12,276 nt of DNA from Vulcanimicrobiota bacterium. GTDB lineage: Bacteria > Vulcanimicrobiota > Vulcanimicrobiia > Vulcanimicrobiales > Vulcanimicrobiaceae. Position 1 is the stretch's first letter; the number at the start of each line of letters is the position of its first letter. A program made the translations under genes and the position numbers. This document shows, piece by piece, positions 1-8,926 of this stretch. The stretch is from contig PKZK01000252.1 of assembly GCA_003133025.1 (NCBI GenBank), positions 8,004-20,279 of the forward strand, read 5' to 3'. The notes beneath the pieces are model-generated. The model searched no databases and was not told where the DNA came from. It worked only from the letters and a program-made list of their open reading frames with translations.

Positions 1-1
1 T

Positions 2-652
2 GGGCAGCTTGGCCCAATTCTGCGGTTGGCTCATTTGATCCATCAGCGCCTTGAGCACCGTCTGTTGACGGCGCACGCGGCCCCAGTCGGATTCGACGTC
101 GTGGCGATAGCGCACGTAGCCGAGCACTTGGCCGCCGGTGAGATACTGCTCGCCCTTCTTGAGGTGGATGTGCAGGTCGCCGTAGTTGTCGTCGTAGTCC
201 ATGTCGTGCTCGACGTTGACGTTCATGCCGCCCATCGCGTCGACCAACTGTTTGGCGCCGTCGGGCTGCACGGCGAGCGTCGCGTCGACGTGCACGCCGG
301 TCAGCGCGGTCACCACCTTCGCGGTCGTGGCCGGGCCGCCGAAGCCGATCGCCGAGTTGATCTTCTGATGCCCGTGTCCCGGGATCGCAACCCAGGTGTC
401 GCGCGGGATCGAGACGAGCGTGGCCAAGCGGCGGTCGATGTCCAGATGCGCCAGGATCAGCGTATCCGAGTTGCCTTCGTCGGCCTGATAGCCCAGCAGC
501 AGCACGTTGAGCCGATGCGAGTGAAAGGCGCTGTCGGCGCTGCGCACGGCGATCGACTGTTGCACGCCGCCGCGAATCGCCGGAACGGCAAACGCGGCAG
601 CGACGACGACGGCGCACGCGACGAGCGCGCCGACGATGAGTTTTCGGTTCAT
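2..652 (-). CDS. LCP (LytR-CpsA-Psr) family protein, putative cell-envelope glycopolymer transferase; 3' end runs off the window
   Basis: Absent from the ORF track (no stop in the window); translated by hand from ATG at 652: MNRKLIVGALVACAVVVAAAFAVPAI (N-terminal anchor)...NVLLLGYQADEGNSDTLILAHLD...LVSIPRDTWVAIPGHGHQKINSA...LVDAMGGMNVNV...GYVRYRHDVESDWGRVRRQQ. SIPRDT, KINSA, VRxRH and DxGRxxRQQ are LCP hallmarks. GAGGA SD lies just upstream. Confidence 0.93.
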   Translation of the reverse strand, partial: MNRKLIVGALVACAVVVAAAFAVPAIRGGVQQSIAVRSADSAFHSHRLNVLLLGYQADEGNSDTLILAHLDIDRRLATLVSIPRDTWVAIPGHGHQKINSAIGFGGPATTAKVVTALTGVHVDATLAVQPDGAKQLVDAMGGMNVNVEHDMDYDDNYGDLHIHLKKGEQYLTGGQVLGYVRYRHDVESDWGRVRRQQTVLKALMDQMSQPQNWAKLP

Positions 653-655
653 GGA

Positions 656-735
656 TTCCTCGAGGGGAGAGCGCGTTCGAGCGCTTCCCGCGCGTTACGT
701 TACGAAGGGAACGCGGCGAGGAAGGGCGGCGCGCG
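656..735 (-). promoter_or_regulatory. Putative translational attenuator: RAPP arrest codons, anti-SD/SD stem and two internal hairpins upstream of the LCP start
   Basis: On the mRNA (minus strand), RAPP codons 735-724 are followed at once by UUCCUCG (723-717), the exact complement of CGAGGAA (662-656), which contains the LCP SD. Enclosed hairpins: CGCGUU/AACGCG (715-710 with 696-691) and GGGAAGCGC/GCGCUCUCCC (689-681 with 674-665). Confidence 0.68.
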
Positions 736-1323
736 TTTGCCGCCGCGCGCTGCGAGCGGATGGGGACGCGCCGCGTGCGCTACGGCAAAGTGCAGCCGTT
801 GGCTGCGCACGCGCGCGAATGCGCGACGCACGAAGATCGCGCGGATCAAGAGCGCCGCGCCGGCGGCGGTGCGCGTGGCCGCATCGAGCGCGCGCGTGAG
901 CGCACAGACGGTCAGGATGCAGGCGCCGCCGTGCAGCGCCAAGGCGACGCCTACGGGCGCGCCGAGCCAGAGCGCGCCGCCCAGCGGATGCCCCGCGACG
1001 GCGATTTGCTCGAGCGTTTCCATGGCGAAGAGCGCGCCGAGCTGCGCCCCGAAGATCGCGGGAAACATCGGCACGAGGCGCAACCGCGCGAACGGCGCCC
1101 GGGGGCGGGTGACGAGGGCGCGCGTGCGCAGAAACACGTAGAGCGCCGCGAGCACCAGGGCACCGGCGAGCGCGGGCAGCACGTCGAGGCTGCTGTGGTC
1201 GGTGTAGTTTCCGCGCCCGAAGAGGCCGGCGTTGGAGGCCGCTTCGACCAAGGGGTCGGCAAGCGCGGCGGCCGAAATGGCCGCGACGGCGCCGAACAAC
1301 CCGCGAAAACCGCTCCGAAGCAT
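700..1323 (-). CDS. Multi-pass membrane protein with C-terminal RAPP motif (candidate ribosome-arrest leader)
   Basis: 207-aa ORF with about 4-5 hydrophobic segments and a polar YTDHSSLD loop, ending ...HPLAARGGKRAPPFLAAFPS*. Co-oriented with the LCP gene and 47 nt upstream of it. The start codon is less certain because GGAG lies 14 nt upstream. Confidence 0.78.
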   Translation of the reverse strand: MLRSGFRGLFGAVAAISAAALADPLVEAASNAGLFGRGNYTDHSSLDVLPALAGALVLAALYVFLRTRALVTRPRAPFARLRLVPMFPAIFGAQLGALFAMETLEQIAVAGHPLGGALWLGAPVGVALALHGGACILTVCALTRALDAATRTAAGAALLIRAIFVRRAFARVRSQRLHFAVAHAARPHPLAARGGKRAPPFLAAFPS

Positions 1324-1514
1324 CGTCCGGCGGTCTTCTCCATCGGCCGGGCCCGCCTCTTTAGGGGCTCCCGAGAGATTCGACGGCTCCTGCGCTTTCG
1401 GTTTGGGCTCTGCGCCGAACGGACATAAGGCAGGTTGCCGACGCTTGCTCCGCCCGTCCCATGCCCCGCATCAACCGCTCGGCAAACGCTCGAAGACTCG
1501 AAAGGGATCCATCC

Positions 1515-1862
1515 ATGCGAAAAATCACGCAATTCATCCTCGCGTTCGCGATCGCGACACTCGGAATCGCTCCGGCCGTTGCGGACACCGTCGGCAGCGC
1601 GAATTTCTCCGGCATCGTCAACCACGTCTCGGGGAACAACATCAAGGTGACCAACCCGAAGACCAACCAGACGTTGAGCTTCCTGATCGTGCCGAAGTTC
1701 GATCAGGTCTTTTCCGCCGACGGCAAGACCACGTATCAGATGGGCGCGATCAAGGCCGGCCAGTACGTCAAAGTCTACTACGATCAGAAGTTCCTCGGCC
1801 AGCGCCACGCCGATCGCATCCTGTTGCTCACCCAGGGCAATCACGTCATGGGCAAACAGTAA
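1515..1862 (+). CDS. Small secreted beta-rich hypothetical protein (possible OB-like fold)
   Basis: ATG at 1515 after AAAGGGA. MRKITQFILAFAIATLGIAPAVA-D is a typical Sec signal peptide with an AxA cleavage site. The mature part has alternating beta-strand patterns (GIVNHVSGNNIKVTN; IKAGQYVKVYY). Strong GC3 codon bias. Confidence 0.82.
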   Translation: MRKITQFILAFAIATLGIAPAVADTVGSANFSGIVNHVSGNNIKVTNPKTNQTLSFLIVPKFDQVFSADGKTTYQMGAIKAGQYVKVYYDQKFLGQRHADRILLLTQGNHVMGKQ

Positions 1863-7910: not shown

Positions 7911-8926
7911 GCCGCGGCGCGCTCGCGCACGCCGAGGCCCGGCCGGTCGCTGAGGATCAGCTTGCCGTCGGCATACGTTACGCCGCTGAATGGATCGTCG
8001 GCGGTCAAGAACGGACCGTCGAGATCGGCCCAATCGACCGCCGGCGAGATGTGCGCCGCGGCGGTGGTCAGCACCGCGCTCTCGACCATGCAGCCGAGCA
8101 TGATCTTCAGGCCGAGCGCGCGCGCCGTGCAGATCATGGAAATCGCGCCGCGCAGGCCGCCGCACTTGACCAGCTTGATGTTGATGCCGTCGACGCAGCC
8201 TTGCAGCGCGGGCAGATCGCGCGAATCGCGCGCGTCTTCGTCGGCGACCAGCGGCACGGACGTGCGTTCGCGAATCCAGCGCAGCCGCTCGGGCGCTCCG
8301 GCCGGGATCGGCTGTTCGCAGAATTCGAGGTCGCAGCGTTCGAGTTCGCCGAGCACCGCGACCGCGCGTTCGGGCGTCCAGGCTTCGTTGGCGTCGACGC
8401 GCAACGCGCCCGTGTAGCGTGCGCGCATCGCGCGGATCAGTTCCACGTCGTCGGCCGTGCCGAGCTTGACCTTGATCACCGGGTGCGTGCGGATCTCGTC
8501 GAGTTTGGCCAGCATCCGCTCGGGCGTATCGATGCCCACCGTAAACGAGGTGACCGGCGTGCGCGCCGGGTCGAAGCCGCAGATCTGCCAAAGTGGACGG
8601 TCGAGGTCTTTGCCGATCCAATCGTAGAGCGCCACGTCGAGCGCGCAGCGGGCTGCGGGCGGCAGGCCGGTCAGCAATCGTGCGACCGCGTACGGATCGT
8701 CGCCCAGCGGGTGCGCGCGCAGCGCCGCGGCCACCGATTCGACGCTCTCGGCGTATCGCGCGCTCGGCGCGGCTTCACCCAGGCCCTCGTGCTCGCCGTG
8801 CTGCAGCCGGACGATCAGCGTGTGTGCGTCGGTCTCGGAACCGCGCGCGATCGTAAAGGTGTGAACGAGCGGCAGCCGGAGTTCGTCGAGCGACAAATGC
8901 ACCCGCGGCGTCTTACGCGATAGCAC
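7907..8926 (-). CDS. Enolase-superfamily dipeptide epimerase (L-Ala-D/L-Glu epimerase / DgcA-like racemase)
   Basis: FTIARGS (specificity Arg), GLGEAAP, KVK catalytic Lys, metal ligands in DANE, EQP and ADE, NIKLVKCGG second Lys, GCMVES, and the DLDG (DxD) dipeptide-epimerase motif. GTG 8926 has AGGAG upstream; GTG 8902 is an alternative start. Confidence 0.93.
   Translation of the reverse strand: MLSRKTPRVHLSLDELRLPLVHTFTIARGSETDAHTLIVRLQHGEHEGLGEAAPSARYAESVESVAAALRAHPLGDDPYAVARLLTGLPPAARCALDVALYDWIGKDLDRPLWQICGFDPARTPVTSFTVGIDTPERMLAKLDEIRTHPVIKVKLGTADDVELIRAMRARYTGALRVDANEAWTPERAVAVLGELERCDLEFCEQPIPAGAPERLRWIRERTSVPLVADEDARDSRDLPALQGCVDGINIKLVKCGGLRGAISMICTARALGLKIMLGCMVESAVLTTAAAHISPAVDWADLDGPFLTADDPFSGVTYADGKLILSDRPGLGVRERAAA

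Follow-up and report, generated by a model that had tools for sequence, protein, structure and literature searches.

A probable nascent-peptide switch ahead of an accessory LCP gene in Vulcanimicrobiota, with covarying complementarity to the ribosome-binding site across its leader family

Stem-loops that sequester a Shine-Dalgarno (SD) sequence and are opened by arrest in an upstream leader have been established for secM, mifM, vemP and uDF_RQH (PMC10987492), and likewise for cutF (PMC9973294, bioRxiv 2025.02.05.636593). In secM-secA, mifM-yidC2, vemP-secDF2 and uDF_RQH-secDF2, the target is often a second paralogue and the leader monitors the machinery that it induces (PMC10987492). Other leaders carry the motif RAPP or RGPP, which is strongly avoided in proteomes; seven of seven such Streptomyces leaders tested gave arrest, for which RAPP by itself is insufficient (PMC12992588). 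In the arrest register, RAP occupies the P site and Pro the A site (PMC10951233). RAPP leaders are known ahead of the genes for TonB receptors, YcnI and others, and those with four TM segments have proposed metal sites (PMC12992588). In CruR-bfrG of Bordetella pertussis, RAPP arrest acts through Rho termination on unstructured RNA, and CruR has a CXXC copper site and belongs to DUF2946 (PMC9426467). CutF of the Rhodobacter capsulatus CutF-cutO system, also of DUF2946, combines a Sec signal peptide with a Cys copper motif (PMC9973294).

Here we describe a RAPP-ended leader that precedes an LCP (LytR-CpsA-Psr) gene, in a window of 12,276 nucleotides that comprises the whole stretch of DNA analysed. 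The mechanism we propose, in which an arrest peptide frees a sequestered SD, is already known from secM, cutF and the RAPP leaders; what is new is the leader family, the LCP target and the altered first Mg2+-ligand position of the leader-linked LCPs. Neither LCP nor LytR is mentioned in the main text and ten supplementary files of PMC12992588, whose Appendix, three archives and figure labels could list LCP, or in the main texts of PMC10987492, PMC9973294 and PMC9426467, and no literature joining LytR-CpsA-Psr with arrest terms was found among the matches listed. The locus would thus extend arrest-peptide control to cell-wall polymer attachment. Also, the terms 'Shine', 'stem-loop' and 'secondary structure' are absent from the main text of PMC12992588, and family-wide covariation for SD sequestration bears on how RAPP leaders regulate their downstream genes, a question left open there. 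The features of the leader and its target are as follows.

700..1323, minus strand: leader ORF, 207 aa, modelled as a four-helix membrane protein, with the tail GGKRAPPFLAAFPS
724..735, minus strand: Arg-Ala-Pro-Pro codons, read from the sequence (Lys-Arg-Ala-Pro-Pro at 738-724)
729-727 and 726-724, minus strand: P-site Pro and A-site Pro, respectively, of the expected stall register, taken from PMC10951233
832..876, minus strand: conserved hydrophobic segment, a candidate for force transmission, some 35-49 residues N-terminal to the P-site Pro and probably near the tunnel exit
931..1257, minus strand: near-invariant polar residues D23, E27, D42, E102, E105 and H131, also Q94, W119 and P123, a candidate outer-face cation site
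2..652, minus strand: 5' part of the LCP gene (PF03816, E 4.7e-43), which extends past the window

The RAPP codons sit seven codons ahead of the leader stop (UAA, 702-700) and are followed directly by the Phe-Leu codons 723-718; the LCP gene starts at 652, 47 nt downstream of the leader and on the same strand. The leader frame has a GC3 of 0.84 and conserved homologues, and because of these properties it was preferred over two Arg-rich shadow ORFs, 760-1428 (plus strand) and 951-1844 (minus strand), which were set aside. A DNA contig, possibly derived from the source sample, covers 200-1500 with five differences and zero gaps, so an assembly artefact is unlikely. An AlphaFold2 model of the leader has four helices (pLDDT 88.5), and hydropathy peaks are also seen. 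Profile scans returned no Pfam or NCBIfam family, a Foldseek search of the PDB gave no match at E <= 0.001, and the ESM Atlas matches were confined to unnamed clusters from Vulcanimicrobiota and Actinomycetota.

Divergently oriented to the leader, and having a 137-bp upstream region in common with it, lies a gene for a secreted-looking protein of 133 aa without a Pfam family (1461-1862, plus strand). The RNA runs X1 and X2, apparently one data set, gave short pieces, none of them over 656-723; the sole identical piece spans 151 nt (1313-1463) and lies at this shared upstream region. Elsewhere in the host genome there are further frames ending in RAPP or RPPP, on contigs C51 (5091-5705, plus strand), C71 (1854-2447, minus strand) and C147 (two sites); two of these further frames are leader-family members, one ahead of a TonB-type receptor and the other ahead of a secreted protein of 285 aa, and both C147 sites lie ahead of TonB-type receptors.

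Leader homologues were found in 30 of 61 relatives, and profile matches in 55 of 151 Vulcanimicrobiota genomes, all within three families of one class; named matches come from Vulcanimicrobiota/Eremiobacterota and from a few contigs that carry other labels in their records. At E <= 0.001, 532 clusters (50% identity) match the leader, and among the best 150 of these 532 clusters R-[AGSP]-P-P is present within the last 25 residues in 142, R-x-P-P standing out as conserved while the rest of the tail diverges. We retained 87 loci out of 95 distinct profile hits, leaving out six that were motifless in the called frame, one without downstream sequence and one in which no long ORF started within 200 nt; one locus from a genome marked unpublished (L025, G008) is counted among the 87, and no claim depends on it alone. 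The tail after the motif is 2-11 codons long in 86 of the 87 loci and the gap to the next gene 24-117 nt in 84, with start codons of the downstream genes picked by a script that uses SD strength. By script, the downstream genes encode 40 LCPs, 29 TonB-type receptors, 6 porin-like proteins, 2 DUF1007 proteins and 10 others; a Pfam scan of 51 downstream products confirmed all 21 of the LCP-class ones and found no secA, secDF or yidC. AcrB and SCO1 are also among the proteins whose genes the family heads.

By description, close counterparts are found among the RAPP/RGPP arrest peptides that head non-Sec genes, which include the four-TM leaders SLIV_18480, 27375, 33595 and 33605 of Streptomyces lividans (Fujiwara et al., EMBO J 2025, PMC12992588). 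Like the RAPP/RGPP leaders of that study, the leader here is a small (<300 aa) membrane protein with RAPP near its C-terminus and a same-strand downstream gene at a short distance, the combination expected of a RAPP-type regulatory arrest peptide; TonB receptors recur as a target class, and conserved polar residues as a proposed metal site. As in CruR-bfrG, RAPP arrest would keep the target on and a ligand would relieve it, and TonB receptors are the target in many paralogues (PMC9426467). Unlike CutF, the leader is polytopic and carboxylate-rich and heads an LCP gene; the DUF2946 profile matched none of 29 family members at E 0.05, and a conserved CxxC was not found in the family. The LCP here is a second paralogue, as the targets of SecM, MifM, VemP and uDF_RQH often are, but unlike them it is no translocase. 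By sequence, then, the leader falls outside both the DUF2946 proteins (CruR/CutF) and the Sec/YidC monitors (SecM, MifM, VemP, ApdA, ApdP).

In the LCP, a PF03816 domain is preceded by an N-terminal membrane anchor, and orthologues also have a LytR_C domain. The PF03816 core, membrane anchor, second Asp and Arg pocket are shared with the LCP phosphotransferases TagT/U/V, LcpA and Cps2A (PMC7831098). In Cps2A, D234 and D246 hold Mg2+, and loss of either reduces activity (PMC7831098, PMC6225345). These two aspartates are not both present in the LCP here: in the motif G-x-D...R-x-D, Q56 (487-485) and N61 (472-470) stand in place of Asp and Arg, whereas D63 is kept at the second Asp position, as are R84, K97, N99, R181 and R183. 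Q56 was mapped to the first Mg2+-ligand Asp by motif, via alignments to S. aureus LcpA (6uex), TagU and Lmo1026. The change recurs with the leader. Unlike TagT/U/V, LcpA and Cps2A, 35 of the 40 leader-linked copies have Gln or Asn at the first Asp and Thr, Asn or Gln at the Arg of R-x-D (25 Gln + Thr/Asn, 10 Asn + Gln, 5 canonical), compared with Asp at this position and a canonical G-x-D...R-x-D in 17 of 17 leaderless LCPs. Since the 35 altered LCPs fall in two clades, they represent one or two events. The second Asp and the Arg equivalents of R84, R181 and R183 are retained in 58 of 58 aligned LCPs, and in the Q56 clade a conserved Asp-Glu (D58/E59) in a shortened loop might substitute for the lost ligand.

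PF03816 was matched at least twice in 16 of the 20 genomes searched, the host included (the 20 were hand-chosen and mostly leader-positive), and neither the second host copy (contig C86) nor 16 other copies had a family leader within the flank examined. The leader-linked genes thus provide natural LCP variants without the canonical Mg2+ ligand alongside a canonical copy in the same genomes, and a testable case for the role of redundant LCP paralogues in an uncultured-rich soil phylum. The second leader-linked clade (L007, L008, L011, L013-L016, L019, L020 and L068) has also lost two more residues, the conserved Asn in K-I-N and the final Arg in D-x-x-R-x-x-R-Q; at 299 aa the LCP of L011 is shorter, and its gene is possibly broken. 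In the host, an unknown base falls at LCP residue 218, near position 8003 of the contig and just outside the window (window 1-2). The host LCP reads 338 aa against 369-373 in orthologues, so a gap may account for some 35 lost codons.

We propose that the leader is probably a nascent-peptide translational switch, in which a predicted stall at RAPP frees the sequestered SD of the LCP gene and turns on this accessory copy. In free mRNA, the anti-SD codons just after Pro-Pro would pair with the LCP ribosome-binding site and keep the gene off; a ribosome stalled at RAPP would cover the anti-SD with its footprint, and prolonged arrest would leave the SD open and LCP translation on. By analogy with SecM, CutF, CruR and ApdA/ApdP, leader and LCP gene would share a transcript, stalling would occur at RAP|P, and the arrest would be released by pulling from the membrane-inserted part of the leader.

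What the leader senses is the weakest step of this scheme. Among 149 aligned representatives, D23 is conserved in 129, E27 in 147, D42 in 148, E102 in 148, E105 in 149 and H131 in 144; in the 40 LCP-linked leaders, E27, D42, D47, E102 and E105 are invariant, H131 is kept in 39 and D23 in 36 (Asn in the other 4). The Arg-rich inner loops would place these polar residues at helix ends on the outer face. A distant group of 24 leaders, which precede other receptors, porin-like genes and DUF1007, has His at both positions 23 and 45 in 24 of 24 and keeps E102. Additionally, the 142 motif-bearing homologues have a mean hydropathy of +0.8 to +1.6 in the segment 35-49 residues ahead of the P-site Pro. 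Taken together, the sequences suggest a ligand site whose chemistry shifted from His-rich to carboxylate-rich, and release by pulling: a cation bound to the carboxylates would allow the four-helix bundle to fold and pull the chain free, the SD re-closing and the gene going off, and scarcity of the cation would leave the ribosome stalled and the gene on.

Given the switch, a shortage of some divalent cation that binds the outer-face carboxylates is a tentative choice of signal, with rather less than an even chance of being right. The same switch could respond to membrane-insertion capacity, as in MifM, to acidity, or to lipid-carrier or envelope stress, and one or another of these has close to an even chance; they compete with the signal step only. 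A four-helix membrane protein, as modelled, with a hydrophobic stretch at pulling distance would suit such a role, LCP enzymes use polyprenyl-linked substrates (PMC7831098), and carboxylates and His could titrate protons. However, a ligand site is indicated by the invariant D/E/H residues and by their replacement with His in the leader branch ahead of TonB receptors, DUF1007 and porin-like genes, and neither sec nor yidC genes occurred among the 51 downstream products scanned. The fullest version of the cation reading is unlikely as a whole. In it, a periplasm-facing sensor of Mg2+ (or a similar hard divalent cation) arose from a His-type transition-metal sensor through His-to-carboxylate swaps, and scarcity would stall the ribosome and so call up an LCP with one Mg2+ ligand lost; if true, cell-wall assembly would have a metal-sparing backup under ribosomal control.

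The RNA elements that would carry the proposed switch are the following.

717..723, minus strand: anti-SD arm UUCCUCG, occupying +7 to +13 relative to the P-site codon, assigned from sequence, fold and covariation
656..662, minus strand: SD arm CGAGGAA, with the SD core GAGG at 661-658
691..715, minus strand: inner stem 1, CGCGUU (715-710) with AACGCG (696-691), leader stop in the loop; sequence not conserved
665..689, minus strand: inner stem 2, GGGAAGCGC (689-681) with GCGCUCUCCC (674-665), one bulge, its end lying 13 nt upstream of the AUG; not conserved in sequence
703..707, minus strand: weak second anti-SD CUUCG, which re-pairs with CGAGG in the fold with 735-710 blocked

The initial annotation had proposed that UUCCUCG (723-717) and CGAGGAA (662-656) close a three-way junction over the SD. 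The complementarity is exact on the minus strand at these coordinates, GAGGA (661-657) is separated by 4 nt from the LCP AUG (652-650), and direct reading bore out the two inner stems, with the leader stop codon in the loop of CGCGUU/AACGCG. The junction itself was reproduced as the MFE of 760-640, with predicted pair probabilities of 0.67-0.98 for the outer helix (seven positions) and 0.75-0.99 for the inner stems (seven pairs sampled). Without a ribosome, the SD is predicted to be unpaired with a probability of 0.01-0.02 in three window sizes, in agreement with the closed SD that had been claimed for free mRNA. LCP had been expected to have no promoter of its own in 653-720; no sigma-70-like promoter was found in 560-1560, in a scan of low power in which shuffled sequences also gave 0. 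The Rfam covariance models gave no match, with best scores of 20-21 bits against cut-offs of 70.

A ribosome at the P-site codon was taken to cover -12 to +15, and this footprint was imposed on the fold. At this locus, it lowered the predicted opening energy of the SD core to 2.2-2.9 kcal/mol from 5.0-5.7 free, and raised the predicted unpaired probability of the SD from 0.01-0.02 to about 0.4; placing the footprint 30 nt farther upstream gave no help. The claim that a stalled ribosome frees the SD thus held, in the model, for the core (5.7 to 2.9 kcal/mol) and failed for the wider zone that takes in inner stem 2: a 10-nt zone (-14..-5) gained 0.0 at RAPP, a full 30S-sized zone became harder to open (8.4 to 10.1 kcal/mol), and the gain vanished once the opened zone took in the 3' arm of inner stem 2. 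The second weak anti-SD (707-703) falls outside the footprint. Across the family, scanned in 84 of the 87 loci (two were left out for length), the mean change in SD-zone opening energy was -0.6 to +0.05 kcal/mol with the ribosome at least five codons upstream and about -2.9 kcal/mol from one codon before the RAPP P site onward, flat to the stop; the gain was at least 1.5 kcal/mol in 52 of the 84 loci and less in 32.

In the model, then, the RNA is coupled to a ribosome at the end of the leader, and reading this coupling as a regulated stall draws on the peptide motif and on analogy. Ordinary translational coupling predicts the same RNA: without a regulated stall, every ribosome that completes the leader would promote LCP initiation, and the leader, synthesized in step with LCP, would serve as its structural partner in the membrane. 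In the folds, the SD is opened to much the same degree wherever a ribosome stands from RAPP to the stop; at this locus, SD opening costs 2.35-2.76 kcal/mol when the stop codon occupies the A site, against 2.20-2.65 at RAPP. This explanation does not account for the near-universal R-x-P-P in a tail that otherwise diverges, and one leader family heads unrelated genes, from LCP, TonB-type receptors and DUF1007 to AcrB and SCO1, as would be expected of a regulator more than of a partner subunit. We therefore consider it improbable.

The covariation across orthologous loci that had been proposed as a check was found. Here, the 24 nt from the P-site Pro were paired with -22..+3 of the downstream gene, using own and foreign partners. 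Over 87 loci, own partners paired at -16.0 kcal/mol and foreign ones at -11.5 (0 of 20,000 permutations), the advantage being present in the LCP subset (40 loci, -15.7 against -10.7) and in the non-LCP subset (-16.3 against -12.5). Related loci are not independent, so these p-values overstate significance; with the LCP loci thinned to one per genus, which left 17, the values were -14.8 and -10.2 kcal/mol (0 of 50,000 permutations). The controls, 369 script-called, same-strand, non-RAPP gene pairs from the host genome, had no own-partner advantage (-14.95 against -14.54 kcal/mol). In 75 of 87 loci, the segment starting at the P site outpaired one taken further upstream in its own leader. Perfect helices of at least 7 bp were present in 34 of 87 own pairs; among foreign pairs the share was 3.8%, and among controls 4.9%.

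Pro-Pro codons are C-rich, and for this reason the RNA evidence, described as independent of the peptide, is only partly so: the real codons outpair synonymous redraws in 72 of 87 family loci, an excess beyond the peptide, and hardly any such excess is seen at this locus, where the helix of at least 7 bp persists in 38% of 60 synonymous draws. At the two motif Pro codons, CCU appears in 27 and 24 of the 87 loci, versus 47 of 698 Pro codons elsewhere in the leaders, a preference that slow decoding could also explain. RNAalifold, run on a MAFFT alignment of 12 LCP loci, returned no consensus pairs because the spacers vary in length and sequence, and covariation was therefore counted after placing the loci in a common register, set by their P-site codons and SDs. 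In this fixed register, 24 of 91 loci (the 87 and 4 metagenome loci) combine CCU at +9..+11 with AGG in the SD zone; three further CCU loci without AGG were excluded from the count. At the six free flanking positions, 95 of 144 cells pair, compared with 65.1 +/- 5.3 after row shuffling, and position +12 of the 24 loci has C-G in 8, G-C in 4, A-U in 3 and U-A in 2. Descent alone would hardly yield the genus-thinned result, or four kinds of pair at a single position. The conserved element is the outer anti-SD/SD helix, the part of the proposed junction that stood; the inner stems are not conserved, and a three-way junction was seen by eye in 7 of 24 folded LCP loci, the others having single hairpins or larger multiloops. 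Across the family, a stem thus pairs the SD with RNA that would lie under the footprint of a stalled ribosome, as predicted by folding and supported by covariation, which is the arrangement of secM and cutF.

The same covariation, showing selection on the helix, bears on a CruR-type scheme in which the stall mainly blocks Rho-dependent termination and the SD helix is secondary. CruR, a RAPP leader ahead of a TonB receptor, does act via Rho (PMC9426467), and 29 of the 87 family loci lie ahead of TonB-type receptors; however, Rho requires unstructured RNA (PMC9426467) and the family spacers are predicted to be strongly folded, and no intrinsic terminator was found in 653-720. As the main mechanism this scheme is very improbable, and a Rho layer and an SD-helix layer may coexist.

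The caution in the initial annotation that a 7-bp match could be chance was justified for the single locus: the whole-fold z-score is -0.73, and the duplex of -12.1 kcal/mol is equalled or exceeded in 70% of the 369 control pairs, so that complementarity exceeds chance across the leader family and not at this locus alone. As the explanation of the family pattern, chance complementarity in GC-rich DNA, which holds for this locus read alone, is contradicted by the permutation, genus-thinned, synonymous-codon and fixed-register tests and is extremely improbable.

Several family members depart from the common layout. In L009 (G037), CAPP replaces RAPP, a 7-8 bp anti-SD helix is retained and the LCP downstream is canonical; arrest may be lost in this case. 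In L042 and L116 (G129), a bestrophin-like gene (PF14023) lies between the leader and a Gln-type LCP gene. The leader of L027 (G016, with a further match in G176) is reduced to its first ~40 residues, and the gene after this remnant is one that we take to resemble the N-terminus of a KdpD-type sensor. Finally, a short Cys/His-rich ORF follows the leader in L021 (G051) and L098 (G057); in L098 the next gene is presumably phosphoesterase-like, and what we take to be a similar gene lies 3' of LCP in L107.
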